Positions 3,948 through 49,552 of a DNA stretch of 64,000 nt are shown here, piece by piece; within the stretch, counting starts at the first letter, position 1, and every line of letters begins with the position of its first letter. The notes beneath the pieces are model-generated. The model did no database searches. It was not told the DNA's origin and saw only the letters and a list, made by a program, of their open reading frames with translations. Made by a program: the position numbers and the translations under genes. This DNA comes from a virus (taxonomy: Duplodnaviria; Caudoviricetes), in IMG/VR virus record IMGVR_UViG_3300031993_000008, positions 32,001 through 96,000 of that record. One strand, 5' to 3'.

Positions 3948-5690
3948 TTAATAAAGGCTTACACCCTCACCAAGCTTAATATCGAATGAGTAGTAGTAAA
4001 GCTGTGGGTGATGACCTGCACGTACGATAGCGTAACGTGACTTCAATGAAGTAACAGGAGCACCTTCCATACCCTCTGCAGGATATGAGAGCTTGTCAGC
4101 CATCAAATAAGGCATGAATACAAGACCAGGCTCGTTGTCCTTACCCTTACGACCAACAACAATCTTTGTTGATGCGAATGGGAGGTTAGGATCTACATAG
4201 ATAGATACACCTGAAATTGCACCTACTGGGTAGATTGAACCAGCATTCTGGTTGATTGTATTTGAAAGAGGATAAGCTGTGAAACCAGCGCAATCCTGGA
4301 GAGCAGTTGCAATAGCAGCAGCGCATACTGCAAATGTACCAGCACCTCTACGACCTCTCTGAGCGATAAGGTTAGAAGCGGCAAGAACCTTACTCATAAT
4401 TCTCCTCTGGATTGTACCAAGGGTTTCAGCACCACCACCAACGTATGATGAAACATAACCTTCTGGTGCAGCCTCACCTGGATTTACAGTGAAGTAAGTA
4501 TTAAGGTTGATACCTTCAAATGCCTCAGCTTCAACATGGTTCTGATCACCAAGTGCAAAAATCTCATTGAGAAGTTCACGGTTGATGTGCTGTGTCAACT
4601 CATTTACAAGCTCTGCTTCTACCTGAGCAACAGCGTCGATACCATAAGCCTTGAGGTCCTGAATCTGCTCACGAGTGATAGCACCCTTAACCTGGATGGT
4701 CTTAGCCTTTACACTCAATGTAAAGGTGTTGAGTGACATCATGTTTGAAGGAGTAGATTCACCAGTCTCTCTGTCATATGACTTTGCTGACATAGGATCG
4801 CCATTCTTGAAACCATTACCTGAGAAACCAGGGATGAAGTCTTCAAGAGCCTTAACTGTGTCAATGTCAACTACATAGAACTTTGAACCATCCTTACCAG
4901 TGATAACAGGCTCGTCAACGAGAAGAGTTTCTGCAAGTGAAGCAGCAGCACCCTCACCACCGTTAACCTTACCAAGACCAGCATAGTAAGCTTTCTCCTT
5001 AACCTGGAAGATAGGACGACCGTCGATACGACCAAGGGCTACGAAGATAAGGTCATAGTCACCTACTGAAATAGGATCCATATGAGGAACAAATGCCTTC
5101 TGGAGATCCTTGAACTTAAGAGCATGGTTGATTGCATCTTCATTAACCAAAGCAGCATCTGACTTAAGAGCATTCTCGATATCACTATCTGAGTTTGCAT
5201 CACCTGCTGAAAGGGTCAACTTAACCATAAGAGGAGCAGTCTTTGACTCATCTGCACCCTCGAAACGAGGACGGAAATTGGTCTTACCACCTTCATATAC
5301 ATAGTCCATATACTGAAGGATACCAAGAGGACCCTGCATAGGAACTACAGGTACAAGGTCAAGAGCAATTGTCTGAGCTGCAACCTGAACTGCAAGAGGA
5401 AGAAGTGAGAATGGGTTATCACCTGAACCACGAACACCGTCATAACCGTTGTTAGGATTTGCACCTGGGAAGTAAGCAGCACCCATACCACCAACATTCA
5501 TATTTGGGTTGAGATGTGCATAACCGAGAGCACTCTCATTAAGACTCTGCTTCTCATTCATATCATGATAAGCACAGTACTTTGACATCCAAGTCAATTT
5601 AGCACGATCGGTAACGCCAGTTGACTCAGTAATAAAACCTGACCAAGTTTTCAAAACTTCAGCCTCGTTCAAAATAACATTCTGTAACAT
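3948..5690 (-). CDS. Major capsid protein (T4 gp23-like)
   Basis: IALDLVPVVPMQGP, TREQIQDLKAYGIDA, SNLIAQRGRRGAG, GLVFMPY, KSRYA motifs typical of gp23; next to protease and portal. Confidence 0.92.
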   Translation of the reverse strand: MLQNVILNEAEVLKTWSGFITESTGVTDRAKLTWMSKYCAYHDMNEKQSLNESALGYAHLNPNMNVGGMGAAYFPGANPNNGYDGVRGSGDNPFSLLPLAVQVAAQTIALDLVPVVPMQGPLGILQYMDYVYEGGKTNFRPRFEGADESKTAPLMVKLTLSAGDANSDSDIENALKSDAALVNEDAINHALKFKDLQKAFVPHMDPISVGDYDLIFVALGRIDGRPIFQVKEKAYYAGLGKVNGGEGAAASLAETLLVDEPVITGKDGSKFYVVDIDTVKALEDFIPGFSGNGFKNGDPMSAKSYDRETGESTPSNMMSLNTFTLSVKAKTIQVKGAITREQIQDLKAYGIDAVAQVEAELVNELTQHINRELLNEIFALGDQNHVEAEAFEGINLNTYFTVNPGEAAPEGYVSSYVGGGAETLGTIQRRIMSKVLAASNLIAQRGRRGAGTFAVCAAAIATALQDCAGFTAYPLSNTINQNAGSIYPVGAISGVSIYVDPNLPFASTKIVVGRKGKDNEPGLVFMPYLMADKLSYPAEGMEGAPVTSLKSRYAIVRAGHHPQLYYYSFDIKLGEGVSLY

Positions 5691-5800: not shown

Positions 5801-5808
5801 TATTTATG
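5801..5808 (-). promoter_or_regulatory. Putative late promoter CATAAATA (capsid)
   Basis: tatttatg on + strand about 110 nt upstream of capsid ATG. Confidence 0.65.
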
Positions 5809-6379: not shown

Positions 6380-8389
6380 TTAATATCTTCTCATCCTTCT
6401 CTGGATTACTTCAGACATTGCCTTGAGTCTTTCTTCAGAAACTACGTTTTCATTAACAGGTGTAGGTTGTGCTACTACTGCCTCATCAACTTTCTGAAGT
6501 TCAATCTGCTTGTCTCTGAAATCTCTGGTATTCCAGAAATAAACTGCACTTGCTTCATTGTTGATTACAAACATCTTTGACTCTGCAAGAATCTCCTGTT
6601 TTCTCTCATCTGAAAGTTTTGACCATCTCTCATTGAGTCTTTCAGGAAGATAGTTGATAAGTGTGAAGTTTGCTGCTTCAACATTCTTCTTTGACTCTTC
6701 AAGTGCCTTTGCCTCTGCAGCCTTTTCCTCTGCATATGCAGCCCTTGCTGTTGCAAGGATAGCATCAAGTTTCTCTGAAAGTTCTGTCTGATACTTCTTT
6801 GCATCAAACTTCTCTTCCTCAACTGTAGCAACTGGTTCAGCGGGAGTCTCTTCTGTTGTGTTGTTCTCATTGACTGGAGTTTCAACAGTTGCAGGTTCCT
6901 CAGCAGGAGTCTCTTCAGTTGTTGTATTATTCTCATTAACAGGAGTCTCAACTGTAGCAGGTTCTGTTGCTGGTTCAGCAGGAGTCTCGACAGGAGTCTC
7001 ATCCTTCTTTTCCTCAACAAGATTCAAACCACCCTTATTGAGTTCCTCAACAATGTAATCCTGATGTTCGATAATCTGGTTCATCTTCTCTGCAAGATAA
7101 TCATTATGGGCAATTGACTTATTCTGTTCCTCAGCAAGCATATTTGAATAATCAATAGACTTGTCAAGCATTTCAGCAACATAGTTCTGATATGAGATTG
7201 TGTCATTGATATTCTCTGCAAGATAATCCTGATGAGCAACCATCTGGTTCATCTTCTCTGCAAGATAATCATTGTAACCAACAATCTTGTTCATGCTCTC
7301 TGCAAGGTAGTTGTTATGTTCAATAACCTTGTTTGTCTCATCAGCGATATAATCCTGATGAATGATAGACTTATCAAGAGTCTCTGCAAGATATTTGGTA
7401 TAACTCTTAAGGTTGTTGAATGATTCTTCAGTTGCGGCAACCTTTGCCTCAAGTTCAGCCACTTTCTGATTACCTCCAACCTGTGCAGCACCATCACCAG
7501 TAATTCTGGCAACTTCCTTGGCAACAAGGTCAGCAATCTGTGAGTTATCAATTTTTGCAGGATCAAAAGTCTGGGTTGGAGTCTCACCACCCTTCTCCTT
7601 ATAACTGATCAACTCATCCTTGATATTTGAAATGGCAGACTGAAGTTCACCTACAATCTCTGACAGGTGTTCACTGTATTTCTGGAAATCAGAATACTGT
7701 ATGAATTTGTTGTCTTCCATATTTGTGTCTTTTAATGTATCCTCATTCCTTTGAGCCTGTGGTGCTGCTTGGTCAACAGTCTTGGTTACCTGGGGATCAA
7801 GGTTGGTGTTTGCATCTTCAGAGATGTCATAGATGTCAATTGAGTCATCATCACCAAATCCATAAGACTCATTAACCCTCTTGAGTTGGGCATTGGCAAA
7901 GCCAGGATCTGCAACAAGGTCATAAGTAAAAAGTTGCTGAAGCTTTACATGTCCAGATTCATCAACTGTTCCGGCAGCCCTTGATGAGATATTCAAAGGA
8001 ATACCATCCTTTACAAGTGCCTGTGCTTCCTTACCAGCAGTGGTGTTAAGGAGTCTAATCTTACCCACAATTGCATTTTGCTGTGGGTCAAATTCAAGAC
8101 TTTCAACAACATGAGAAACATTTCCAAGTGAAATCTCAAATCCATGTGGATGATCCAACTCACCAAGAAGTCTCTTACTTTCAATCTGTTCCCTCAATGC
8201 TTCTACATGTGGAAGGAAGTCAGCAGACTCATAGATTCTGCCGTTACGGTTTTTGGTATTGAAAGATGTGAAAAGTCCAGTTAATACAATAGAATCGCTG
8301 TGTTCATTATTTTCATTCAGTACCTGCTCAACTGAATAATTGAGTGTGGCATTAGAGCGTTCTACTATCAATAGTTTCTTCTCTTTCAT
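6380..8389 (-). CDS. Prohead protease (gp21-like) fused to scaffold/core domain
   Basis: NRNGRIY, LGELDHP, NVSH, ISSRAAG, YDLVADPGF motifs in first ~170 aa; long repetitive coiled-coil C-terminus. Confidence 0.88.
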   Translation of the reverse strand: MKEKKLLIVERSNATLNYSVEQVLNENNEHSDSIVLTGLFTSFNTKNRNGRIYESADFLPHVEALREQIESKRLLGELDHPHGFEISLGNVSHVVESLEFDPQQNAIVGKIRLLNTTAGKEAQALVKDGIPLNISSRAAGTVDESGHVKLQQLFTYDLVADPGFANAQLKRVNESYGFGDDDSIDIYDISEDANTNLDPQVTKTVDQAAPQAQRNEDTLKDTNMEDNKFIQYSDFQKYSEHLSEIVGELQSAISNIKDELISYKEKGGETPTQTFDPAKIDNSQIADLVAKEVARITGDGAAQVGGNQKVAELEAKVAATEESFNNLKSYTKYLAETLDKSIIHQDYIADETNKVIEHNNYLAESMNKIVGYNDYLAEKMNQMVAHQDYLAENINDTISYQNYVAEMLDKSIDYSNMLAEEQNKSIAHNDYLAEKMNQIIEHQDYIVEELNKGGLNLVEEKKDETPVETPAEPATEPATVETPVNENNTTTEETPAEEPATVETPVNENNTTEETPAEPVATVEEEKFDAKKYQTELSEKLDAILATARAAYAEEKAAEAKALEESKKNVEAANFTLINYLPERLNERWSKLSDERKQEILAESKMFVINNEASAVYFWNTRDFRDKQIELQKVDEAVVAQPTPVNENVVSEERLKAMSEVIQRRMRRY
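6821..6999 (-). repeat. Tandem PATVETPVNENNTT(T)EETPAE peptide repeats
   Basis: Two near-identical copies plus partials in the protease-scaffold linker, each containing VNE. Confidence 0.8.
7037..7393 (-). repeat. 14-residue periodic repeat (YLAExxNxxIxxQD, about 8 copies)
   Basis: Visible directly in the translation. Confidence 0.8.
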
Positions 8390-8451: not shown

Positions 8452-10173
8452 TTAAAGACCTGACAATGGATTACCTCCACCACCATTTTCATTATTTTCT
8501 TCAGCTTCTTCGTTTTCTTTTGCCTTTTTCTTATCCGGTTCAAAATCAGATTTTGGGGCACCGTCAAGAATTTTTGCTATATCTTCCTGCTTATATCCCT
8601 CCTTCTTGAGTTTCTTCTCATCCTTGTATCTCTGGTTGAGTTGGAGTTTCTCATCACTCAATCCAAGGAACTCACGGACCATAAAGTCAAGGTCAAAATA
8701 AGGCTTGTCATTACCCTCATCATCAGTTTCTACAATAGAACCCATAATAGATGAGATGAAGTCTGCCTTCTTCTGGAGAAGTTCAATCTCCTTGTTTTCC
8801 TCAAATACTGAATCCTTATTATAATCAAGACCAAGATTGACACGGAAGTTCATATCTGTCATAATGTTCTTGTGTTTCAAGCACATCTGGAGATATGTAG
8901 GTTTGATGAGGATTTCAGCAAAGATTGCTCTCAATCTTCCGATAAACTTACTGAACCTGATTTCCTCACGGGCAATACCTTCAGCACTCATTGTATACTG
9001 ACCTTCACCCTGTTCCTTCTCAAACCTGGTAAAAGGAATCTTTGATGCCTGACGGAGTTTATCCCTGAAGTATCTCAAGGTCTCTGTATCTGAAATTTCA
9101 GGACCGTCACCACCGAGGTTCTGGATTTGTGGAGTCTCACCACCTTCAGATGCCATAAAGATGTCCTTATAGAACTGAAGCATTGGCCTACCATTAGTCT
9201 TAATCTCACCTGAATCCCAATCGAAGTCCACAAGTTCCTTATAGTTTGCCATTGCCTGGGCCAGAGTCTGCCTACCTCTTGGTGACTGCACTGAACCGAC
9301 AGGAATGATATACTGTGTCTTATATGAAGCATTGGTGACAGCCCATATGATACGGGTTGCCTCCATTGTCCTCAGGATATTAAATGACCTGATAAGTCTT
9401 TCAACATAAGAAATTCTGGAAACTGTATCTGCCTTTGCATAAGAAAGGTAGATAATCTGGGAATCATAAAGAATCCTGTCCTGTGTGGTCTGACCGTTTA
9501 TACCAACCCTCTGGTTGACAAACCAGATTTTTTCATTGGTGGCTGGGTCAATACCTGGGGTAAGACAGGCAGGATCCAATTCAACAAAACCAATAATCTC
9601 TGTTTGGTCTGTGTTGTAAACAATTTCAAAAGCAAGGAAACCGTCAATCAACCATTTTCTGAAATAGTCAGTTGCCTGGACGGTATCATAGAATCCAAAA
9701 TAGTTATATAACTTATTGTATTCCTCTGAAAATTCATCAAGGATTGCCTGGTCTGCCTTGTAGTTGAGTTTGATGTTTGCGAATTTGTTCGCACCATCAA
9801 ACACAATACTCTCCTCACATATAATGTCAAGGATTTCCTCAACCTCATCCTGGAGAGCAAACCTTCTCAACTGTTCCTTTTTCTTCTGGTAATTCTCTTC
9901 TGAAAGATGAAAATATCCTTTTGACAAAGATGGATCTGTTGCAGACATCCTTGCAAAAAGGACTTGAATGTTTTCATCATTAAGAGAACCAACCTGTCCG
10001 GTTGTAGGATTGACCTGCAGGTTCTGTGTCTGCAATTCCATATCCATAGAACGGACATTCTTGATAACATCATCCTTGTAGTTCATTCCGAAACTGGACA
10101 AACTACGAAGCATCCTTGTTACAGGATTAGGGTTACTTGATGAATTTCTATTTGTATTAGTAAAACCAGCCAT
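8452..10173 (-). CDS. Portal protein (T4 gp20-like)
   Basis: EVEEILDIICEE, FRKWLIDG, ISYVERLIRSFNILRTME, YFRDKLRQASKIPFTR, IAREEIRFSKFI. Confidence 0.92.
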   Translation of the reverse strand: MAGFTNTNRNSSSNPNPVTRMLRSLSSFGMNYKDDVIKNVRSMDMELQTQNLQVNPTTGQVGSLNDENIQVLFARMSATDPSLSKGYFHLSEENYQKKKEQLRRFALQDEVEEILDIICEESIVFDGANKFANIKLNYKADQAILDEFSEEYNKLYNYFGFYDTVQATDYFRKWLIDGFLAFEIVYNTDQTEIIGFVELDPACLTPGIDPATNEKIWFVNQRVGINGQTTQDRILYDSQIIYLSYAKADTVSRISYVERLIRSFNILRTMEATRIIWAVTNASYKTQYIIPVGSVQSPRGRQTLAQAMANYKELVDFDWDSGEIKTNGRPMLQFYKDIFMASEGGETPQIQNLGGDGPEISDTETLRYFRDKLRQASKIPFTRFEKEQGEGQYTMSAEGIAREEIRFSKFIGRLRAIFAEILIKPTYLQMCLKHKNIMTDMNFRVNLGLDYNKDSVFEENKEIELLQKKADFISSIMGSIVETDDEGNDKPYFDLDFMVREFLGLSDEKLQLNQRYKDEKKLKKEGYKQEDIAKILDGAPKSDFEPDKKKAKENEEAEENNENGGGGNPLSGL

Positions 10174-19502: not shown

Positions 19503-19521
19503 AATATATGTTCAGTTTATT

Positions 19522-21807: not shown

Positions 21808-21832
21808 AAAATTGTGGATAAATAATATATTG

Positions 21833-21873
21833 TATTTATGAAATAAAAAAGGAAGTGGGTGTCCACTTCCTTT
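21833..21873 (-). promoter_or_regulatory. Terminator hairpin plus late promoter CATAAATA (21833-21840)
   Basis: aaaggaagtgg-gtgt-ccacttccttt followed on the minus strand by CATAAATA. Confidence 0.65.
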
Positions 21874-21893
21874 CATTCATATGCCTATTTTTA

Positions 21894-24701: not shown

Positions 24702-24713
24702 AATCTATATAGT

Positions 24714-26696
24714 TTATTTTCTTGATAATTCTCTCTTAAGTTTCTTCTTCCAGAACTCACGACCTTCCTTACCGTTCAATACATCATGGAACATACTCAA
24801 TGTACGCCAGTTGATTGACTGGTAATTTGGATCAGCCAGGAGTTTCTCAACTTCCTCAATGAACTCCTCAACCATATCCCTTGGAATTGCACATCTGTCA
24901 TCAGGAATAGTCTTATCTGCATATTCTGTAAGAATCTTCTTCTTCATAACTGTCCAGATTGATTCAGCAAGAGGTGCAATATCATAGTTCTCAAAACGAG
25001 ATGAGATAGCATCCCAGTTACCCTTACCTACTTCATTGATAAATACATCTCTTTCAGAGTTGGAGATGATAACAACAAGACCTCTGAAGATGAACTCATT
25101 AGGCATTGCAGGTTGGGTATTTGCTTCCTCATCCTTCCATGCATCATCAATTTTTGTCATATAGAGGTCAATCATTTCCTGATCGGCATCTTCCTTACTT
25201 GCAACACCACCAGGTGCAGTACCACTATAGTAAAGACTGTATTTCTTCATCTCCTTCTTATAAAAATCTGTCTTATCATCAGCTGACTTACGACCGATTT
25301 CTGTATAATACATCTTCTGTCTGTCACCCTTAAGTCTTCTTACATTATAAACCTTCAGTTTTGACTCCTTACCAGGATAACCTATCAAACAGTCTTCAAT
25401 ATCTGTCTGGAGAGCATTCTTCCACATAGAAACACGGTAGTCACCATCAAAAAGGTTTGGTGAATCATCAAATACCAGCATCTTACCATTGTATTCATAC
25501 ATAAGCTGATAAACAGAGTCTGCTGTTGAGCAACCTGAACCTGCCCATACATAGTCTCTGTTCAATACCATATTCTTTTCCTTGAGGATCTTCTTGAGGG
25601 TATGTGTCTTACCGATACCACCCTTACCAGTGAGAAGGACACCACGTCTTGACATAATAGACTTGTCATTACTATCAAGGTCACCATTCTGATGTACATA
25701 GTTACACATAGCACTTATAACCAACTCCAACTCTGTGATGGTTGATTCATAGTTCTCTGTGTCCTCTTCAATCCTGGCCTTCAGAAGGTCTTCTCTTGCT
25801 TTCATCTTCTTTTCAAGAGAATCTTCCTCATCAGTAACTTCATATGCAATACCAGCAGATGTGGAAATTGCAGGACCCTCACCCTTATATGACTTTACAA
25901 GATTGTCAAATACACCGGCATCAACTGCCTTCTGTACTGAACCAGCAACTCTACCACCTGTTGCAAGCAACATTACATTGTTGGCACAGTCCATCATATA
26001 TCTTGTCTGACCATCCCTGGTAGCCAATGGACCACCAACAAATATCTTAAGAATTCTTGTTGCCACTGGATCATTATCCTGAATCAATAAGAAATACTGT
26101 TCAACTGCATTCTTTACACCATAATCACGGATAAAACCATATACATACTGTTTGTCATCCTCTGACATCTTCTCGAAGTTCTTTACATTCTTCTCAACAT
26201 AACCGGCACCAATTCTTCCGGCAAATGACTCATCAACTGGTTCAGGATTCTGCAAGTCATAAACCAACTGATCAAGCATATCCTTGAAACCAAGTTTCTT
26301 TGTTGAATAGGTAACCAATGCAACATTTTCCTTACCCATCTCAAATGTGTCAAATATTGAAATGAATTTCTCATTCTGGTCACGGCAGCAGACAATCTGC
26401 TTACCTCCATCCCTGTCAAAGAACCTTACACCAGGGACACCATTCAGATAAACAACATTGTATCCAACAGCAAAATCACCAATATTCTGCAGCCTCTTTG
26501 CTACAATATTGGAGATTTTTGAAAGATATTTATCCTCATAAACAGTTGTACCTATGATAATGTCATTTTCAGATATTCCCAAATCATCAGTATCTGGGAT
26601 TTCCAAAGTCTTATCCTCATTATCAACTGCTTCTTTCAATGCCTTTTTATTTGAAACAAATTCTTCGGCATCAAAATTTTTGAAATGTCTTATCAT
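24714..26696 (-). CDS. P-loop/AAA ATPase
   Basis: LLTGKGGIGKT Walker A, LVFDD Walker B, IISN sensor. Confidence 0.75.
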   Translation of the reverse strand: MIRHFKNFDAEEFVSNKKALKEAVDNEDKTLEIPDTDDLGISENDIIIGTTVYEDKYLSKISNIVAKRLQNIGDFAVGYNVVYLNGVPGVRFFDRDGGKQIVCCRDQNEKFISIFDTFEMGKENVALVTYSTKKLGFKDMLDQLVYDLQNPEPVDESFAGRIGAGYVEKNVKNFEKMSEDDKQYVYGFIRDYGVKNAVEQYFLLIQDNDPVATRILKIFVGGPLATRDGQTRYMMDCANNVMLLATGGRVAGSVQKAVDAGVFDNLVKSYKGEGPAISTSAGIAYEVTDEEDSLEKKMKAREDLLKARIEEDTENYESTITELELVISAMCNYVHQNGDLDSNDKSIMSRRGVLLTGKGGIGKTHTLKKILKEKNMVLNRDYVWAGSGCSTADSVYQLMYEYNGKMLVFDDSPNLFDGDYRVSMWKNALQTDIEDCLIGYPGKESKLKVYNVRRLKGDRQKMYYTEIGRKSADDKTDFYKKEMKKYSLYYSGTAPGGVASKEDADQEMIDLYMTKIDDAWKDEEANTQPAMPNEFIFRGLVVIISNSERDVFINEVGKGNWDAISSRFENYDIAPLAESIWTVMKKKILTEYADKTIPDDRCAIPRDMVEEFIEEVEKLLADPNYQSINWRTLSMFHDVLNGKEGREFWKKKLKRELSRK

Positions 26697-36783: not shown

Positions 36784-37338
36784 TTACTCACCCTCCTTCT
36801 TTGCTTTTTTCTTTTTCTTCTTTTTAATCTCTTTCTTGTCTGTAAGTTTGAACTCCTTACTCGGGTCAACCACAACCTTGGCCCTGGACATAAAGTCCTT
36901 ACAGAGTAGCATCCTACTCCTGTAGGTCTTAGTTCCTGACAAATCAGAAATCTTCAGGTCAACCAGTTCATCCTTGTATTCCTTTCCATTGAACTTGATG
37001 TCAACCTTTATGACCGGTCTTTCAGTTGCCTTTCCATGATGCCAAATTTTGATATGTTTCACAATATCATACTCTTTCTTCTCATCATTGAAATCAAATG
37101 AAACCTTACCATCCTTCTCTTCAAAGTCCTGGACTATGATAGCATTGTAAGCAGTGTTACCGGTATCAAGTTTTGCCTTCATCTTTCCAAGACCGATAAC
37201 CTCAATTACCTCCTTGAATCCGGAAACCTCCTTGCCATCATGTGTTTCCTTTGATGTAGGATGAACAGGAGTTTCAGGTATAAAGGATTCCACCTTCACA
37301 CCTCTACTCTTTATATATTCATCAAATTTCTTTAACAT
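36784..37338 (-). CDS. RimK-associated retropepsin-like protease (RimB / 'ATP-dependent Zn protease' family)
   Basis: KAKLDTGN, ERPVI, MLLCKDFM..VVVDP; downstream of rimK; poly-Lys tail. Confidence 0.75.
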   Translation of the reverse strand: MLKKFDEYIKSRGVKVESFIPETPVHPTSKETHDGKEVSGFKEVIEVIGLGKMKAKLDTGNTAYNAIIVQDFEEKDGKVSFDFNDEKKEYDIVKHIKIWHHGKATERPVIKVDIKFNGKEYKDELVDLKISDLSGTKTYRSRMLLCKDFMSRAKVVVDPSKEFKLTDKKEIKKKKKKKAKKEGE

Positions 37339-37507: not shown

Positions 37508-39277
37508 TTAATCTACCTTATTATATGGTGCCAGGTCAACCTCATGACCATAGAAGGCTTCTATCACACCAGCAACCTTACATGCATTCTCAAATGAGAT
37601 TGTATCATTGTTGAAGTAAGCATAATTCTCTTTACACTCAATGAGTTCATTTCCCTTGTAACTCAATGTCCAGTTATCCTTACTTTCATTTACACTCTCA
37701 ATCTTCCAGTTGTCATTCTCATATACTGACTGTTTACCCTGGATGAATCTTGTGATGAGTTTCCTCAATCCACCAAGTCTGATGTTCTCACCTTCTTCTA
37801 TTATCTTACTTTCATTTAACATAACACTTTCATCAAGTTTCTCAACAGGTACATCAAATCCTGTGGTGTTGTCTGTGAGGATGAATGAGTTCTCTACTAC
37901 AACAGCCTTGTCTGAAATTCTGTGAAGCAGCTTACTACCACCTATTGCAATATTGATATTGATATTGTCATTTACAGTCTTCAAGACAACAAGTTCATTC
38001 TTGTATATGGTACCATTGAACCTGATGTTCATCTCAACCATAGGATCTCCCTTTCTCATACCTGAAAGTTCCATCTTGTAAGTGACACCATTGAATACGA
38101 ATGTCACGTCATCGTCCTTCGCATTTACTGAACTACACTGGAGTTCTGTGAATGTCTTGTTGTCATCAAACTTCATAGCAGCATCAACACCATCACCCAA
38201 ATCCTTGAAAGTGACAGTTTCATACTTACCAATCTGATCTGAATCATACTTGGTGTACTTGAAGTCCTTGAACATATCCATCAATGTACCTACAACATCA
38301 TCACCGGCAGCAGTTGTAATACCCTTGGTACCAGGAGATGAGTTCACCTCAATCACATATGACTGCTTTGTCCTGGAATCCATAATAAGGTCAACACCGG
38401 CCCAACGACAACCTGTTGCCTTGGCTGCCATCTTTGCAATCTTCTCCTGTTCTGATGTAAGATGACCCTTCTCTGCTGTTGAACCCAGTGAGTAGTTACT
38501 TCTGAAATCGCCGGCAAGCTGGTTTCTCTGCATACATCCGATAATCTCAAAATTGTCAATACCTGGGGTCATCCTTTCAAATCCCCTATAGAGTACATGG
38601 ATACGGAGGTCATAATCTGAATTGATTTTCTCCTGGAGAAGAATATCTGCCTTTGGTACAAGTGCAAATATTGCCTGAAGGACAGATTTAAGTGAAATCA
38701 TTGAATCTATCTGGGCAACACCAATACCCTGTGTTCCCTTTGTAATCTTGATGATAAGAGGAAAACCACCACCTACAGCAGCAACCTTATCTTCAAGTTT
38801 GTTCATTGAAGAGTTGGTAACAACAGCGGTCTTTGGTGTAGGAACACCGGCAGCTTTAAGTTTCTTGTATGTGATGAACTTATCCTCACAGTTGTCAATT
38901 GCATCAAGAGTATTCAATACAAAGAATCCGTCATTCTGGAGTTCAGTAAGGAAATCCCTTGACTCGATATTCTTCAAAACTGTTCTTCTTGGAACAATGA
39001 TGGTGTTGTTTGGATTGAGGGTGAAAGTCTTTTTTGTTTCACCATTCTCAACTACATTGTAATCATCATCACTACCCTTTGAGATTGTAGATGAAGAAGG
39101 ATCAATTGTGACCAATTTCAATCCTGCCTTTTTGGCTGCCTCCTCAAAGAAAAACATTGAATTGGAACTCTTTGTGGTCTTTTCTGCCCTACTTGACAAG
39201 AAAACAACCTGGATGTTCTTTGCTTTCTTACTTTCATTAAGAGGAGCATATCCTTTACTTGAATATTTCATAGTCAT
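37508..39277 (-). CDS. rimK: RimK-family ATP-grasp glutamate ligase with degenerate protease-like and extra C-terminal domains
   Basis: DKFITY..L..AGVPTPKT, FPLIIK..GTQGIGV, LLQEKI, DLRIHV, FRSNYSLG, AGVDLI, EVNSSPG. Confidence 0.85.
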   Translation of the reverse strand: MTMKYSSKGYAPLNESKKAKNIQVVFLSSRAEKTTKSSNSMFFFEEAAKKAGLKLVTIDPSSSTISKGSDDDYNVVENGETKKTFTLNPNNTIIVPRRTVLKNIESRDFLTELQNDGFFVLNTLDAIDNCEDKFITYKKLKAAGVPTPKTAVVTNSSMNKLEDKVAAVGGGFPLIIKITKGTQGIGVAQIDSMISLKSVLQAIFALVPKADILLQEKINSDYDLRIHVLYRGFERMTPGIDNFEIIGCMQRNQLAGDFRSNYSLGSTAEKGHLTSEQEKIAKMAAKATGCRWAGVDLIMDSRTKQSYVIEVNSSPGTKGITTAAGDDVVGTLMDMFKDFKYTKYDSDQIGKYETVTFKDLGDGVDAAMKFDDNKTFTELQCSSVNAKDDDVTFVFNGVTYKMELSGMRKGDPMVEMNIRFNGTIYKNELVVLKTVNDNININIAIGGSKLLHRISDKAVVVENSFILTDNTTGFDVPVEKLDESVMLNESKIIEEGENIRLGGLRKLITRFIQGKQSVYENDNWKIESVNESKDNWTLSYKGNELIECKENYAYFNNDTISFENACKVAGVIEAFYGHEVDLAPYNKVD

Positions 39278-39300
39278 AAATGTATATAATTTCAATATAG

Positions 39301-39340
39301 TATTTATGAAAAAGAGTGAGAATCAATCTCACTCCCTTTA
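39301..39340 (-). promoter_or_regulatory. Terminator hairpin plus late promoter CATAAATA (39301-39308)
   Basis: gagtgaga-atcaa-tctcactc followed on the minus strand by CATAAATA. Confidence 0.65.
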
Positions 39341-41269
39341 TCTTCTATCCATCTGGTTGTATGTCCTGTCAACATACTCTCTGAAATCATCCACATAGTC
39401 ATAAACCTTTGCATTTGGTGAATGTACACAAGGTTCATCTTCCTTCCTGAATTTCTTTGATTTCTTCTTTTTCTTCTTTATCTGTTTAAGGAACATTGTA
39501 TATGGTGCAACCTGGTGGTAAACTATTCCTGTTGGTGATGGAAGGTCTCCTGATCCAGGCTCACCATTTGGACCTGGAAAATAAGCAGCACCCATTCCAC
39601 CCACACTGGCAGGTGTGGCACCACCCGGAACACCCTCACATTCATTTGTGATATTTTTTTGTCTTTCTGCCTCTTCCATTTCAACATATCCTGAAAGTCT
39701 GTCTGACAATTCATCAGCCCAATAGTTCCTGACATAATTCAATATACCTTCAATGTTGGCATCCTGTGACACAACACCCTCTCTGTCATTACTTTCAATA
39801 TAATCACAAAGACCATCAAGTGAAAACTCATAATCATCATATACTATCCTAGTAGCATAAAAAACAAGGAACTGTTCAAGATTATCCATATCTTCAAATG
39901 ATAACTCATCCTCCTTCTTTATTTTCTCACCACTACCCCTGTCCAATATACCTTTCCAGACTGATTCATTTGTAGGATGCCATGCAACATATTCTGTCAT
40001 CTTTTCCTCCCATGTGAGGTCACCCCACATATCACTTGGATTGACATAGTTGTCTTCACATCCTCTGGAGTATAATACATCCATTCTATCACTTTCATCC
40101 AATGAATCTGCCCACCAAGTATCAAGTGTATCATCTATGGTCTTACCTGGTTGCTTCTCAAAACCTATTTTCTTTATTTTCTCATTTTCTGAATTAATCT
40201 CCTCATCTATGACTTTTTTAACTTTTCCCCAACATCTCTTGGCAAAATCAACCTTCCTCACTACATATTCCTTTGCTTTATTGTCAATGATGTTCCATCT
40301 TTCCTTGCAGAACCTTTCAAAGTCATAGAGGATGTTTTTGTACTGTTCATAATACACTATCCTTTCCACAAATGACCTGATGTCATATTTAATGTCATCA
40401 ACAGTAAGGTCATCCTCCTTTCTTACACTGTCTCCTGAACCCCTGTCAAGCATACCACCCCAGGTTGATTCATTCACATATTGACTGTTCAGGGAATCGA
40501 CAACATCATCAATTTGCTTATTTAAATTATCAATCGCATCTTCTATGGCAGGAAGTACAGTATCATCCCAGTGTTCTTTGGTGTAGTCCAGGAGATCATC
40601 CATATTGTAATCAATTGATGACACCCTTGGTTTATCCTTATAATCTTTTATAAAGGCTTTGAATTCAGAATAACTACCCACAGTATAATCATGTGTGTAT
40701 TCTATTGCTGCAAATATTTCTATATATGCAGAAAGGGCGTTCAGAAGATTTTCTGATATTTTGTCTTCTTTCCTTTTGTCATCTCCTCTACCTCTGTCAA
40801 GTATTCCACCCCAGGCGGATTCATTGACAAGCATATTATCTTTATTATTCAAAAAGAATTCAATTACATCTATGTATGTCTTATTGGTACAAGTACCATC
40901 TTCTTCTTTTATAACTCTTCTACATGTACCTATATTTTCTACATTAAACTTTTCTGATAAAGCCCACAAAAATGAGTGTCTTATTTTTACACCTACACCA
41001 GACCAAGACAACACAATATGATCCATTTCACCATCCTCATTATAAATGGTCTTTAATGATATATTACCTATTATATCAACACAAATTTCCCATGAATTGA
41101 ATTTACCTGTATACTTATCTAAATAAAATATCCTTTTCTCATATTTGGACTTGATATAATCATAAAGACCATCAACATCAAGGAGATTGATATCATCCTC
41201 CTTTCTGATAGTCTCTCCTGTACCCCTATCAAGGACATCACCCCAGACTGATTCACTGATTTTCTTCAT
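39338..41269 (-). CDS. Tag-delimited polyprotein (4 WGGILDRG tags) with capsid N-arm-like C-terminal module
   Basis: Four ES.W..[IMV]LDRG.G...KED motifs; VGGMGAAYFPG identical to capsid; basic tail. Confidence 0.75.
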   Translation of the reverse strand: MKKISESVWGDVLDRGTGETIRKEDDINLLDVDGLYDYIKSKYEKRIFYLDKYTGKFNSWEICVDIIGNISLKTIYNEDGEMDHIVLSWSGVGVKIRHSFLWALSEKFNVENIGTCRRVIKEEDGTCTNKTYIDVIEFFLNNKDNMLVNESAWGGILDRGRGDDKRKEDKISENLLNALSAYIEIFAAIEYTHDYTVGSYSEFKAFIKDYKDKPRVSSIDYNMDDLLDYTKEHWDDTVLPAIEDAIDNLNKQIDDVVDSLNSQYVNESTWGGMLDRGSGDSVRKEDDLTVDDIKYDIRSFVERIVYYEQYKNILYDFERFCKERWNIIDNKAKEYVVRKVDFAKRCWGKVKKVIDEEINSENEKIKKIGFEKQPGKTIDDTLDTWWADSLDESDRMDVLYSRGCEDNYVNPSDMWGDLTWEEKMTEYVAWHPTNESVWKGILDRGSGEKIKKEDELSFEDMDNLEQFLVFYATRIVYDDYEFSLDGLCDYIESNDREGVVSQDANIEGILNYVRNYWADELSDRLSGYVEMEEAERQKNITNECEGVPGGATPASVGGMGAAYFPGPNGEPGSGDLPSPTGIVYHQVAPYTMFLKQIKKKKKKSKKFRKEDEPCVHSPNAKVYDYVDDFREYVDRTYNQMDRR

Positions 41270-41274
41270 AATAA

Positions 41275-41312
41275 TATTTATGAAAAAAGGTGAGAATCAC
41301 TTCTCACCTTTC
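41275..41312 (-). promoter_or_regulatory. Terminator hairpin plus late promoter CATAAATA (41275-41282)
   Basis: aaaggtgagaa-tcac-ttctcaccttt followed on the minus strand by CATAAATA. Confidence 0.6.
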
Positions 41313-43557: not shown

Positions 43558-44367
43558 TTAGATAAGACCCCACTCTGCCAGGGCTTCAAATCCACCGATA
43601 GAGTCAATATATGCCTTTGCTTCCTCTACAATCTTACTGTAAGGGATACCATTCACCTCTGTATCACCAATGGCACAGAAGAATGTCTGTGTTCTACCAG
43701 TTCTTTGGGCTTCCAGGAAAGCATAGATGTTAACAGACACATCTGCCTTTGATATATCCTTTCCATTGATACCACCACCAGTAACACCACGACCCATATC
43801 TGAACCAAGCTTGCGGTTGACAGCACCAGTATCAACATTTGTTCCACCAGTCCAGTCACCCAGAGGATTGACAGTTATGGTATATTCCGGATAGTTATAC
43901 TGGAGTTCTGCCTTGAGTTCTTCTGAATTTGCACAACTCTGACATACAATCAAAGTCTTTGTCTTGTCATCAATGACATACTTTCCATCTGTGGGATACT
44001 TCTCATATATCTTCTGTACAATATCCCTCAACTCCATCTCTTCCGGAAGTATAGGTTCACCCTTGAAGATACCATTGTCGCCACAACGGATCTCACCATC
44101 CTGGTTGTGTGCCAGGTGTTCATCCTGGGGAACATTGATGAGTTTGAGTTTTACATCATCACCTGCTATCCTCTTGACAACCGGTAACACATTCTCATCA
44201 TTGAAATTGAAACTTGACTCTGCAATAATGGTACAAAGTCCATGACCAAGGAGTACCTCTATTGCAACCTTGGGATTTTGTTGATTAGCATATGCAAGGT
44301 CAACCAATGCACCAGCAATGCGATCTGCCACCTTATCAGGATGGCTGGGGTTTACTTTCTCAAACAT
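43558..44367 (-). CDS. metK: S-adenosylmethionine synthetase, compact form
   Basis: EKVNPSHPDKVADRI, CGDNG, DGK, NPLGDWTGG..VDTGAVNRK, GGGINGKDISKAD. Confidence 0.88.
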   Translation of the reverse strand: MFEKVNPSHPDKVADRIAGALVDLAYANQQNPKVAIEVLLGHGLCTIIAESSFNFNDENVLPVVKRIAGDDVKLKLINVPQDEHLAHNQDGEIRCGDNGIFKGEPILPEEMELRDIVQKIYEKYPTDGKYVIDDKTKTLIVCQSCANSEELKAELQYNYPEYTITVNPLGDWTGGTNVDTGAVNRKLGSDMGRGVTGGGINGKDISKADVSVNIYAFLEAQRTGRTQTFFCAIGDTEVNGIPYSKIVEEAKAYIDSIGGFEALAEWGLI

Positions 44368-44450: not shown

Positions 44451-45221
44451 ATGAAGAAATTAAGTAAAATAGATGAATCAGTCTGGGGTGGTATCCTTGA
44501 CAGAGGAACAGGTGAAATCAATAGAAAGGAGTATGGTAAAAAAGTCCATACCTGTATAGATATTGACATTTACATTAAAGATTCATCCTGTCAGTATGAC
44601 AAATACATAAAACACATCCTGGATTATGATAACTATAAATTACCTTGCAGAATTTGTATAGGTTTTGAACGAATCAGTAATCCAACATATACTCCTGAGG
44701 ATTTGGCAAAAATGAAAAACTTTGAAATGCCATATGATTATGTACTTGATGAATACACCAAACCTAAAAATGAATTTGACTATCTTGTTGCATGGTTTTG
44801 GAAATATAATGAATTTATGGACCACAATACCAATGCTGACATCACTGAAGATGATTATATGTCAATATGTAGAGGTATAGCAATCAAACTAAAAGAGATA
44901 GGTAATCGTATTGAACATATGCCTGGAAACAAAACCAATATTATTGGTCAGGATGGTGTATCCAGTAAGTATTCCAATTTTGCCTTGAAATTGATGGATG
45001 AAAAAAATACTTTCCACTGGAAACATGCACATAATGGCAAATCCTTACTTGATTACAAAGAAGATATGATTCATGAATTTCCGGAATTGAAAGATGTTGA
45101 TTTCTTAATGTGGCCATTCAATCAATTCCCTTATGTAAACATTGGTCTTCCAATCACATCAGTAACTGTCAAAGACTTCAAAAAATATGAAGAATATACT
45201 CATAATTGGTTTACAGTATAA
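44451..45221 (+). CDS. WGGILDRG-tag family protein 1
   Basis: MKKLSKIDESVWGGILDRGTGE leader; full-length paralog of next gene. Confidence 0.8.
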   Translation: MKKLSKIDESVWGGILDRGTGEINRKEYGKKVHTCIDIDIYIKDSSCQYDKYIKHILDYDNYKLPCRICIGFERISNPTYTPEDLAKMKNFEMPYDYVLDEYTKPKNEFDYLVAWFWKYNEFMDHNTNADITEDDYMSICRGIAIKLKEIGNRIEHMPGNKTNIIGQDGVSSKYSNFALKLMDEKNTFHWKHAHNGKSLLDYKEDMIHEFPELKDVDFLMWPFNQFPYVNIGLPITSVTVKDFKKYEEYTHNWFTV

Positions 45222-46003
45222 TGAAGAAATTAAGTAAAATAGATGAATCTACCTGGGGTAATATGTTGGATAGAGGTACTGGTGGTGTAATCAAAAAAGA
45301 AGATGGTAAACTTGTACACACATGTCTTGATGTAGATATAGCCATCAAAGACCAGAAATGTGATTATAATACACTCATTAAAGAAATATTGAATGATGAT
45401 TTTATTAGTGGATTTTACCAAGGGGTGGTAATACTAAATACACAACAGAAATCATATTCACCAGAAGAGATGGCAAACATAAGAAAATTTGAAGCACCAT
45501 ATGCATATCTCATTTATGATGGTAAACATGGTACAAGTCTTGTTGCTGAATTCTGGGCATATTCTGAATTCCAGGATTCTGACCTTACTACTGATTTTAT
45601 TGAAAGTGTATCGGAAGAGGATTACATATCCATCTGTAAAGGTATTGCCACAAAACTGAAAGAAGTCGGAGGAGACATTGCACAACTTCCAAGAAGACAT
45701 TCCACAATTTCTAACACAAAAGACCGTGATTTCAATGATGAATATGTGTTTAAACTCATTGATGAATCAGATATTGCATGGTGGGGAGACTATCCTGATC
45801 CAGAAGGAAGGACTCTTACTGATTTTGAAACGGATATGTTCACAGAGTATCCGGAATTAGCAGATGTTGATTTCTTCACTTGGACATTTTATAGCGGATG
45901 TAATATAGGTATCCCTATCAATTATGACACACTTGTTAATTTCAAGAAATATAAAGAATTTACTAAAAACTGGTTTAAAGTAACAGATGAAGAAACTGAG
46001 TAA
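45221..46003 (+). CDS. WGGILDRG-tag family protein 2
   Basis: MKKLSKIDESTWGNMLDRGTG; TAATG coupling to previous gene. Confidence 0.8.
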   Translation: MKKLSKIDESTWGNMLDRGTGGVIKKEDGKLVHTCLDVDIAIKDQKCDYNTLIKEILNDDFISGFYQGVVILNTQQKSYSPEEMANIRKFEAPYAYLIYDGKHGTSLVAEFWAYSEFQDSDLTTDFIESVSEEDYISICKGIATKLKEVGGDIAQLPRRHSTISNTKDRDFNDEYVFKLIDESDIAWWGDYPDPEGRTLTDFETDMFTEYPELADVDFFTWTFYSGCNIGIPINYDTLVNFKKYKEFTKNWFKVTDEETE

Positions 46004-46982
46004 AATAGATGAATCAACCTGGGGTGATATACTTGACAGAGGTTCAGGAGATACTGTGAGAAAAGAGGATGATGTGAATCATTTTGAGTTCTATGATTTT
46101 GTTCATTATCTTGAAGAGAAATATCCTTCCAAAAACAGAGGTACTGGAATTGTATCTGGGCAATCAATTAAAAACAAAAATATTCTCTATTTATCTATAC
46201 CAATTAAAAGATTTGATAATAAAACTCAATGGTTAAGAATTGAGGTTGATAAAGAAACATTAAAGTATACAGGAAACATAGAGGTTAGCAAATCCTTACA
46301 TACCGAATATGAATATACTTTGTTTTCTAAAAAGATATTGGGTAAAAAGTATAAGATTCTGTATAATTTTAGATTTGAAGACTATATATTGAGACCTATT
46401 GATGGTGAGATAACAAACAGTAGCATTGTGGAATTGATTGACATGTTTTTGCATAATGTTGATAACCCATTATTGAATATAGATGTCAATGAATCCACCT
46501 GGGGTGGTATCCTTGACAGGGGTGCTGGTGATGCCATAAGAAAGGAAGACTTACCGGAACAAAATAAGGAACACTGGTGGAGAAACATTGAATTACCAAA
46601 TGTTCCAAAGTATAAAAAAGATGAGCTCAAGGCATTGGATCTGATGTATGATTTTGCTGTGGATAAGATTAGAAAAAGATTCAATGTTTCCTGGCCATAC
46701 CAGATAGTGTTTCACTTTGATGGTGAACCATATTGGGATTTAAATATTGAACACATAACCCCACGAGGTTATGATACTTTTGCTATGTATGCTCATGGAC
46801 CCAGAGCGCCCTGGCAGATTTATTTTTCAGATATGTCAATGGGTGAAAAGAGAAGTATAAGATACAGACTTGAAAAGAAGAAGTTCTATGTATATCCATA
46901 TAAATATGGAGATGGAAGAGTAGAGTATCATTTAAGGGAACAAAGTACCTATAATAATGAAAAAGGAATTGAATTGAAATGA
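45987..46982 (+). CDS. WGGILDRG-tag family protein 3 (two-module polyprotein)
   Basis: N-terminal tag plus internal VNESTWGGILDRGAGD at about 46485-46550. Confidence 0.8.
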   Translation: MKKLSKIDESTWGDILDRGSGDTVRKEDDVNHFEFYDFVHYLEEKYPSKNRGTGIVSGQSIKNKNILYLSIPIKRFDNKTQWLRIEVDKETLKYTGNIEVSKSLHTEYEYTLFSKKILGKKYKILYNFRFEDYILRPIDGEITNSSIVELIDMFLHNVDNPLLNIDVNESTWGGILDRGAGDAIRKEDLPEQNKEHWWRNIELPNVPKYKKDELKALDLMYDFAVDKIRKRFNVSWPYQIVFHFDGEPYWDLNIEHITPRGYDTFAMYAHGPRAPWQIYFSDMSMGEKRSIRYRLEKKKFYVYPYKYGDGRVEYHLREQSTYNNEKGIELK

Positions 46983-47611
46983 TAAAAATAGGCTTGGATT
47001 TCTCACTTGTATCCCCGGCAATATGTGTTTACAAGAATGGAGAGTATTCTTTCATCTCCTTCTTTGATGATTATGGAAAGGACTGGAAAGGAGGAAAGAT
47101 AAAGGCATTCAACTACCATAGGGATCTGTCAAAGTTTATGGAGATGAATCCCTACACAAGACATATTGAAAAGAAGGATTACAGGGAGGAACAGAGGACA
47201 AAGATGAGGGCTGCGAAGATGATCGCAAATAAGATCTCCAACAGACTTGTTGAGATTGTTGGTGGTGAGGAGGTCATCATAGGTCTTGAAGGATTCTCAT
47301 ATGGCAGTATTTCATCATCCACCCTGGACCTGGCACTCTTCAACTCATTTCTCAGGATAAAACTCCTTGAGGATTTCGGTGAGGATTGTCTTGTAATCAT
47401 CTCCCCTACAGAAGGTAAGAAAAACCTTTCAGGTAAGGGAAATGCAAAGAAGGAGGATATGATCCAGGCCTTCATTGAGAACAGGACAAATGACCCGGAT
47501 ATTGAGAGATGTCCATTCTGGAAGTTCTGTAAGGAGAATGAACTTGATTATAAGAACATAAAACCTATTGATGACCTTGTGGATTCATATGGTATATTGA
47601 TAAGTATATGA
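46979..47611 (+). CDS. RuvC-like Holliday junction resolvase
   Basis: IGLDFSL, IGLEGFSY, SPTEGKK..SGKGNAKKEDM, DDLVDSY. Confidence 0.78.
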   Translation: MIKIGLDFSLVSPAICVYKNGEYSFISFFDDYGKDWKGGKIKAFNYHRDLSKFMEMNPYTRHIEKKDYREEQRTKMRAAKMIANKISNRLVEIVGGEEVIIGLEGFSYGSISSSTLDLALFNSFLRIKLLEDFGEDCLVIISPTEGKKNLSGKGNAKKEDMIQAFIENRTNDPDIERCPFWKFCKENELDYKNIKPIDDLVDSYGILISI

Positions 47612-48183
47612 AAAAGTTAAGTAAAATAGATGAGTCAACCTGGGGCAATCTCCTGGACAAAGGTGCCGGAGAAAAAGAAGCAAAGGAAGATACATTCAAT
47701 TTCAACTTCTATCAAATAAAACCGGTTGATTTGGGTCCAGAATTTCCATTCCTTTGGGCAGATACTGACCTGATTGCCAATGATGAAATATACTTTGATT
47801 GGGACACATTACAGAGAATGCTTCCCCAAATTAAGAAAACAGGATGGAGACTTCCCTATTCACCAAACCAAATGAGAGATGTTATTAAACTCATAAACAC
47901 ATCACCTAATCTGAAAACAGTATGGCACCGCAGGGCATTTGGAATGATAGAGAATACAGACACTGGTGAATATGTATCATTTCCTACAGGTAGTCAATTT
48001 GGAGAAACCTATTGGTGTGAAGATGATTATCATTCAACCAATCCAGGAAGACAAATTGAAAATGAAAGGGTATTTGAAATAGGTGAAAACTATTATCAAG
48101 ATGGTAAAAAGATGGTTTTACTTTCAACTAATAATATGGAAAAAACAAGAACAGCAAGAATAAGACTCGTAAAGGACAAATGA
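47608..48183 (+). CDS. WGGILDRG-tag family protein 4 with DUF1566/Fib_succ_major-like domain
   Basis: Tag then VDLG..LWADTDL..YFDW..GWRLP..YW..IRLVKD. Confidence 0.7.
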   Translation: MKKLSKIDESTWGNLLDKGAGEKEAKEDTFNFNFYQIKPVDLGPEFPFLWADTDLIANDEIYFDWDTLQRMLPQIKKTGWRLPYSPNQMRDVIKLINTSPNLKTVWHRRAFGMIENTDTGEYVSFPTGSQFGETYWCEDDYHSTNPGRQIENERVFEIGENYYQDGKKMVLLSTNNMEKTRTARIRLVKDK

Positions 48184-49010
48184 AGAAGTTAAGTAAGTTA
48201 TTGAATGAATCTACCTGGGGTGGTATGTTAGACAGAGGTAGGGAAGATTCTGTAAGTAAACAGGATTTTGGTGCTGAACTGGAAATTGATGGTACAAAAT
48301 ATATATTTGCCAAAGATTTCTGGAATATGGGTGATATATATGAAAAGGAAAATGAAAGTGAATGGACATGTTTTGCCTTCAATAAAATGCCAAATGGAAG
48401 TAAAATCATAACCGGTGACACTGATGCTGCCGGAGTTTTCGGTAGAGACAAATGGGATATTGGTGAAAATGAATATGAGGTATATGTATTGAGGAATTAC
48501 TTTGATAAAACAAAACAGCAATTGGTAGAGAGTTCAATAAATTGGGGTGACATTGATGAAATAGGAATTCCTGAAATCAAAAATATTCTTGTAAAGTATA
48601 TAGAAGAAGTATACACAAAACATATGTCTGATTTTGCATATCACTGGATTCAGGAATTAGAATCAAAAGATTGGTCTCAGGATTTAATAATATGTTGCAA
48701 TATCTACAATGAAGATGATATTCAAAATGGTGAAGATTCTAATATAGATACCATTCAAGATGAATTTAATCACAATGTCATTGAAAAAATACATATCATT
48801 TCATTTTCATCATTGGAACACACAGATTGGGATGAAAGACTTGAAAAGGCATTGACAGATGAATATACAAAGATAGGATATGTCAAGTCAGAGGAATTTG
48901 ACCTGGATCCATTTAATGACCCAGGAAATACAATATGTCTTACATTTGTCCTTTTAGGTGAAGAAAAAGAGGATGATGAAGAAGATGATGAAAACCATAG
49001 AGATTATTGA
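48180..49010 (+). CDS. WGGILDRG-tag family protein 5 (acidic)
   Basis: MKKLSKLLNESTWGGMLDRG. Confidence 0.75.
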   Translation: MKKLSKLLNESTWGGMLDRGREDSVSKQDFGAELEIDGTKYIFAKDFWNMGDIYEKENESEWTCFAFNKMPNGSKIITGDTDAAGVFGRDKWDIGENEYEVYVLRNYFDKTKQQLVESSINWGDIDEIGIPEIKNILVKYIEEVYTKHMSDFAYHWIQELESKDWSQDLIICCNIYNEDDIQNGEDSNIDTIQDEFNHNVIEKIHIISFSSLEHTDWDERLEKALTDEYTKIGYVKSEEFDLDPFNDPGNTICLTFVLLGEEKEDDEEDDENHRDY

Positions 49011-49012
49011 TT

Positions 49013-49552
49013 ATGAAGAAATTAAGTAAAATAGATGAGTCAGTCTGGGGTGGTATCCTTGATAGGGGAACCGGTGAAAAGGTAAAGAAAGAGGATAACT
49101 TGGGCAATATCTTATCACTCAAACCTATTGATATGGGTGGTTCTGTCCTCTGGGCAGACCAGAACCTGATATATGATGGAGAAGAGATATTCACATATGA
49201 TGAGGCAAATGACCTCATATCCCATTCAGAATGGAGACTTCCAACATTAAAGGAGGTTGCTGAACTATATGGACATAACTTATACTATGATTCAAAATAT
49301 ATATACCTTGATGATCCCAAAAAAATATCATTCAAGAAATGTGGTTGTGGATATCCTAAAGATATTATAATTGATAATGGTAAATGTTTTTATGGATGGA
49401 CATCTGAACCATATGTAAAAAATCCAAGAAATATCAATGTATTTGTCATAGACCATTATACAGTAGATTATACAGGAATTGAACCAGCAAGTATCCCTGT
49501 TACCCAAGATAGAGACACCAGATGTTGTATAAGACTGGTCAGAGACAAATAA
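49013..49552 (+). CDS. WGGILDRG-tag family protein 6 with DUF1566/Fib_succ_major-like domain
   Basis: Tag then IDMG..LWADQNL..WRLPTLKE..GWTS..IRLVRD. Confidence 0.7.
   Translation: MKKLSKIDESVWGGILDRGTGEKVKKEDNLGNILSLKPIDMGGSVLWADQNLIYDGEEIFTYDEANDLISHSEWRLPTLKEVAELYGHNLYYDSKYIYLDDPKKISFKKCGCGYPKDIIIDNGKCFYGWTSEPYVKNPRNINVFVIDHYTVDYTGIEPASIPVTQDRDTRCCIRLVRDK

Follow-up and report, generated by a model that had tools for sequence, protein, structure and literature searches.

The DNA analysed here is a 64,000-nucleotide window of a 155-kb contig from a T4-like jumbo phage. The contig is approximately 56% complete, and its near relatives have genomes of up to about 410 kb. The capsid protein of the contig is 44% identical to that of the huge phage LR756500, 33% identical to those of Lak phages, and 26-33% identical to those of PTm1, pT24, PAU, MA9V, and MaF61. 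These identities suggest a Bacteroidota host.

Features of the 643-amino-acid protein and the capsid gene

A gene for a 643-amino-acid protein is located between an exonuclease-like gene and rimK (Table 1). The protein has no match among Pfam and PHROG families at E 0.001. Its N-terminal part consists of variable cargo, in which each of the four Glu-Ser sites is followed by a WGxxLDRG tag and may be a site of processing. Tags of this type after Glu-Ser head 12 modules in 8 genes (window positions 39965-41254 and 44451-49552; G000:C1:1918-2496), and relatives have their own variants of the tag.

The late-promoter-like box of the gene lies 13 nucleotides 5' of the start codon, and boxes of the CATAAATA type are also found ahead of the capsid, portal, protease, sheath, and tube genes. 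C/TATAAATA sites lie no more than 160 nucleotides from an ORF start in 45 of 60 cases, versus about 8% expected. The 643-amino-acid protein may be expressed late.

Several other genes of the window were also noted. An ATP-grasp gene of the RimK type (37508-39295), which has a late promoter box, adjoins a gene for a small LDTG-motif protein that, by eye, looks like a RimK-associated aspartic protease (36784-37338). The gene at 43558-44367 looks by eye like a phage-borne S-adenosylmethionine synthetase, with an HPDK motif. Four large clustered genes at 17736-26696 have late promoter boxes and NE sites, and contain AAA/MoxR-like, VWA-like, and metallopeptidase-like motifs (all by eye).

The C-terminal 100 amino acids of the protein form a module that contains a copy of the capsid N-arm. 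Column conservation among homologues is 30-68% upstream of E543, 95% for the Glu itself, and 88-100% for most columns downstream. The copied segment extends from the predicted protease site to the end of the arm and stops before the first helix. Of the 23 arm-copy proteins, 21 have a basic tract downstream of GSGD, versus 5% in the background. A motif resembling the T4 capsid-targeting sequence, defined here by a post-hoc pattern, is present at either end of 10 of the 23 proteins versus 7% in the background. This motif is C-terminal in the module of the window and N-terminal in some relatives. Matches to gp23 (HK97-fold domains) were confined to the capsid gene, and none was found in the module. 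A search of the ESM Atlas returned no match at or above 0.9, and a sequence search of the PDB returned only weak matches to gp24.

A single gp23-family gene per genome was found in the contig and in complete relatives. The model of the capsid protein has an HK97 fold with T4-type topology and matches T4 gp23* best, which together with the PF07068 profile places the protein in the gp23 family. Because no gp24-like paralogue or separate vertex gene was detected with PF07068 in G000, G003, G005, Lak-A2, or PTm1, gp23 probably forms pentamers too. The earlier note had read the copied segment as the equivalent of the T4 N-arm. The positional alignment with T4 gp23 and the best structural match agree with this reading, as does the capsid arm itself, which lies between the predicted E52 cut and the first helix and is disordered in the monomer model.

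Table 1. Positions in the window of the 643-amino-acid protein, the capsid protein, and related head genes.
Feature	Position	Strand	Remarks
643-aa protein	39338..41269	-	four tag-headed cargo cassettes and conserved C-terminal arm-copy module
CATAAATA late-promoter-like box, 643-aa gene	41275..41282	-
Variable cargo, aa 1-542	39644..41269	-	Glu-Ser sites E6, E150, E267, E435
E543, predicted prohead-protease site	39641..39643	-	homologue conservation begins here
Arm-copy module, aa 544-643	39341..39640	-	free-standing gene in relatives
Copied arm, 11-mer through GSGD	39545..39604	-	11-mer 39572-39604, GSGD 39545-39556
Lys/Arg-rich tract	39443..39478	-	counterpart in other arm-copy proteins
C-terminal motif like T4 capsid-targeting sequence	39365..39403	-	post-hoc pattern
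Major capsid protein, T4 gp23 type, 580 aa	3948..5690	-	PF07068 E 9e-35, phrog_138
Capsid N-arm/N-fist equivalent, aa 53-91	5418..5534	-	downstream of predicted E52 cut; positional alignment with T4 gp23 66-93
Capsid 11-mer, aa 66-76	5463-5495	-	inside N-arm equivalent
Capsid GSGD	5418-5429	-	end of N-arm equivalent
CATAAATA late-promoter-like box, capsid gene	5801..5808	-
Prohead protease/scaffold, gp21 type, predicted cutter	6380..8389	-	PF03420, phrog_207
Portal protein, gp20 type	8452..10173	-	PF07230

Match between the copied arm and the capsid arm

An identical 11-residue sequence is present in the capsid protein and at residues 556-566 of the 643-amino-acid protein, as first reported in the earlier note, and both copies are encoded on the minus strand. 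The two coding sequences are identical at 29 of 33 nucleotides, and the four differences are silent third-position changes. Between the Glu and the 11-mer there are 13 residues in the capsid protein (E52) and 12 in the polyprotein (E543). GSGD is found downstream in both proteins, and a Lys run comes after it in the polyprotein.

The number of shared exact 11-mers expected by chance is about 5e-5 in a whole proteome of 50,000 amino acids. When the six frames of the 155-kb contig were scanned with the capsid arm, the module scored 79, the next frame scored 39, and shuffled sequences did not exceed 52. No further arm copies beyond the capsid protein and the module were found in the about 56% complete contig.

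GMG, FP, and GSGD of the capsid arm are invariant across 42 capsids, and modules and capsids alike keep a fixed frame, GMG-x3-FP-loop-GSGD. The three middle residues of the 11-mer are variable in both. They are PAY in 72 and AAY in 27 of 120 close homologues, and differ in six of the eight same-genome capsid/module pairs of the clade. The exact 11/11 identity can therefore be put down in part to coincidence, with only the GMG/FP/GSGD frame fixed.

Silent sites agree at 6 of 10 codons in this genome (5.2 +/- 1.5 expected) and at 24 of 57 over seven same-genome pairs. Since this agreement is at the level of chance, the match is kept by selection on the protein and not by recent copying of DNA. 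Recent DNA conversion was rejected on the same grounds.

Distribution of arm copies and relation to the capsid

The copy is kept in orthologous polyproteins. The last 100 residues are retained in 129 homologues at about 70-97% identity, and many module columns are invariant. The homologues range from 361 to 1159 amino acids in total length, with a variable upstream part and the module retained. A free-standing module gene of 57-117 amino acids is found across many relatives. Copies of 102-117 amino acids occupy the same locus near rimK/uvsX, and a 62-amino-acid copy is present in a complete 413-kb genome. The module is best described as a clade-wide gene, and its fusion to tagged cargo as a lineage-specific addition. 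The modules of P0136, P0141, and P0144, which belong to the rumen clade, contain longer exact capsid loops (the whole capsid loop), a sign that the capsid gene may now and then be re-copied.

Relatives have GNAT acetyltransferase, DUF285, and leucine-rich-repeat domains among the cargo joined to the module (P0006, P0050, P0071). The uvsX gene of some relatives has an apparent intein-like insertion and an early end (L032:212-1177; L043:1887-2849; L003:9607-11526), and uvsX of the window is intact (both by eye).

A DNA pattern scan for the frame returned mostly capsid genes, plus a set of proteins other than capsids that have this frame; DUF3008 is fused to some of them. An arm copy is located behind a DUF3008-type domain in several other lineages (L097:5233-5589, PF11450 tested; L193; L233), including LR756500; these fusions hint that DUF3008 is a head protein. 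With a 43-position profile, matches were obtained to the capsid protein and to one or two small ORFs outside the capsid gene in Lak-A2 (weak module match, E 2.8), in four huge phages, and in PTm1; none of 24 IMG/VR records gave more than two matches. Phages of 600-735 kb have two arm copies apiece (L195/L198; L196/L200; L199), and in one copy of LR756501 (L199, LR756501:230502-230552) the second half of the arm is missing. In the cultured phage PTm1, the module gene lies between the portal and protease genes, which is the slot of T4 genes 67/68.

A second arm copy was not found in the whole PAU genome, nor in pT24, MA9V-2, or MaF61 (HMM over whole records; local scan over 40-60 kb each). No significant second copy was found in P-SSM2, whose orthologue has drifted from its own arm. 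The absence from PAU and the drift in P-SSM2 indicate that the arm-copy gene is not universal.

Modules and capsids share words within a genome, such as GVGDPVP in Lak-A2 and GATIGTNWSS in LR756502, and the modules of PTm1 and LR756500 contain a long loop that matches their own capsid. In a 16-genome score matrix evaluated by permutation, where the module-finding HMM for the named genomes included those genomes' capsid arms and the longer match was used for genomes with two modules, the own capsid was the best match of the module for 9 of the 16 genomes and the second-best for 3 (permutation p<1e-5). The ranking also holds for nine deep lineages (permutation p<1e-5). The co-variation that the earlier note proposed as a check thus stands across deep lineages; at short range, changes in the middle residues do not follow those of the capsid. 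After one ancient duplication, modules would be equidistant from all capsids. The tracking of the own capsid speaks against one old duplication without co-evolution, so that either co-evolution or repeated re-copying is needed.

An arm copy was also identified in T4. The protein gp61.1 (NP_049649.1, a hypothetical protein of 54 amino acids; phrog_1823/2086) is composed of a targeting-type leader, a Glu site, an arm copy, and a Lys run. The T4 N-fist and gp61.1 align with a score of 70, against a shuffled maximum of 41. The module likewise has a Glu site, a copy of the arm of its own capsid, a basic tail, and a capsid-targeting-like motif. It differs in that gp61.1 has no sequence similarity to it, has its targeting motif at the N-terminus, is encoded beside primase, and has no cargo fusion. 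The module gene, unlike the gp61.1 family, is not positioned upstream of primase, and the module gave no match to the family profile (phrog_1823/2086) at E up to 1.

The capsid arm of cyanophages is unrelated in sequence to that of the clade. A scan for the cyanophage arm returned 113 capsids and seven non-capsid proteins (frames of 71-201 codons), which copy the cyanophage arm and end in a basic tract. Arm-copy genes lie upstream of primase in many cultured cyanophages. The S-SM1 protein SSM1_197 (T4-GC426; phrog_696, phrog_3286) begins with the arm copy. Purified S-SM1 virions yielded 17 peptide counts for it, which could derive from its extra C-terminal domain, and the T4-GC426 analogue was not detected in Syn9 virions (PMC3037559 Table S8). 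Published virion peptides exist for this cyanophage analogue only. T4-GC426 resembles the module in having a copy of the own-capsid arm followed by a basic tract, and differs in that the arm is another one, a 140-amino-acid C-terminal domain is often present, and the protein may start at Met without a propeptide. The module had no match to the phrog_696/3286 profiles. It is best regarded as an architectural analogue of the gp61.1 and cyanophage proteins, or as too diverged to match; because neither the gp61.1 nor the cyanophage profiles matched, it is treated here as an analogue and not as a demonstrated family member.

Cyanophage proteins of 180 amino acids are labelled 'major head protein' in RefSeq and phrog_696 (L407:1306-1854; L397:2501-3055), a label that probably reflects nothing more than the arm copy. 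A literature search that left subscription journals mostly uncovered found no account of capsid-arm copying and none of what gp61.1 does. The case in the window is one of a widespread and apparently unpublished class of capsid-arm copies.

Proposed role of the module

In T4, the gp23* arm is internal before expansion and makes contacts between capsomers afterwards; at expansion, its N-terminus moves from the inside to the surface, where it touches four subunits and makes up the Soc site (PMC9546572). This arm, or N-fist (residues 66-91), is the positional counterpart of the copied segment and is exposed by a cut after Glu. It is part of an HK97-fold subunit, whereas the module lacks a capsid fold. 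The core proteins of T4 undergo cleavage by gp21 (PMC9958956). IPI-III and Alt, which have a capsid-targeting sequence, are late, head-loaded, and gp21-cut (PMC9958956), and the cargo cassettes look alike; the T4 proteins differ in lacking a capsid-arm copy, and the targeting-like motif of the module is C-terminal. Minor proteins bound inside the capsid are also known from P1 (DarA/Hdf) and Patience (gp4), and P1 DarA is protease-cut and contacts DNA in complex with Hdf (PMC12810830, PMC11965321). Compared by description, these proteins differ in that copying of the capsid arm has not been reported for them.

With a probability of roughly 0.55, we read the module as a protease-matured minor head protein that provides a spare N-arm for vacant arm-binding sites and has its basic tail inside. 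Docking to the shell and binding of DNA are candidate functions proposed in the earlier note. In favor of this reading are the extent of the copy from the predicted protease site to the arm end, its tracking of the own capsid, silent sites at chance level, the detection of the cyanophage analogue in S-SM1 virions, the gene position in PTm1, and the finding that T4 gp61.1 and cyanophage proteins are built alike around arms of unrelated sequence. The Syn9 result, the missing second copy in PAU, the drift in P-SSM2, and the independent middle residues at short range count against it. The module would be made late, as the promoter box suggests, and would enter the prohead core by way of its capsid-targeting-like motif. 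A gp21-type protease would then cut after E543 as after E52 of the capsid protein, as expected from the sequence and from T4 biology, and leave an N-terminus that is free and matches the register of the capsid arm. Upon expansion, the copy would occupy capsid-arm sites left empty or exposed by the lattice, most simply five around the portal vertex, or would bind a partner that reads the arm. The basic tail would remain inside, against the DNA. In this lineage, the module would also serve as a carrier, with variable tagged cassettes attached upstream that would be loaded along with it and released by cleavage. A T4 portal-vertex structure report describes a symmetry break for the arm at this vertex, with five N-fists disordered (PMC7136217). 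A word search of two such reports returned no mention of an extra peptide, which also counts against this reading.

Less probably, the module is an assembly regulator absent from the virion, whose copy competes for a reader of the capsid N-terminus (protease, scaffold, chaperone, or decoration protein) and tunes the timing of maturation or head size. Such a regulator would predict co-evolution equally well, and fits with a copy that comprises the cut site plus the downstream arm, with T4 capsid-length mutations that map to the arm region, and with the Soc site formed by the N-fist (PMC9546572). It fits poorly with SSM1_197, which is present in virions and has its arm at the initiator Met with no propeptide ahead, so that the cut site is dispensable there.

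Defences that sense the capsid exist (Lit/Gol, CapRel), and the variable cargo fusions (GNAT, DUF285 domains) suggest conflict. A decoy for a host immune sensor of the capsid N-terminus is nevertheless unlikely, as the arm copy ends before what we take to be the equivalent of the T4 Gol peptide region, and both the late promoter box and the virion-detected analogue speak against it. Phages with hosts among enterobacteria, cyanobacteria, and Bacteroidota also retain the copy; the arms of these phages have no common sequence, so no single sensor fits.

The earlier note had further proposed that the module tethers tagged cargo to the shell. Despite the in-frame fusion in more than 120 homologues, this is more doubtful still for the mature head. 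The cargo precedes the predicted E543 cut, where the conserved Glu site separates it from the arm, and would block the free N-terminus that the arm requires; free-standing forms of the module are also common in many relatives. A functionless capsid fragment, vestigial or recently gene-converted, as the re-copied loops of P0136, P0141, and P0144 might suggest, is highly improbable, being largely refuted by silent sites at chance with fixed amino acids and also opposed by the many invariant columns and by retention across the T4 superfamily.

The reading as a spare arm can tentatively be extended to a dedicated protein kept across the T4 superfamily (T4, cyanophages, Lak, and 700-kb phages), which would evolve together with the capsid and fill out the network of arms at the symmetry break of the portal vertex. 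The rumen-type lineage may have made this protein into a carrier of effector cassettes for head loading and release by the protease.

If true, the spare-arm reading would give a function to an overlooked and widely kept gene of T4-like phages, including gene 61.1 of T4 itself, and would add a missing part to the textbook pathway of head assembly. Arm copying would also account for the 'major head protein' labels on cyanophage proteins of about 180 amino acids in RefSeq/PHROG. The fusion to cargo suggests how gut jumbo phages may load interchangeable cargo into their heads.
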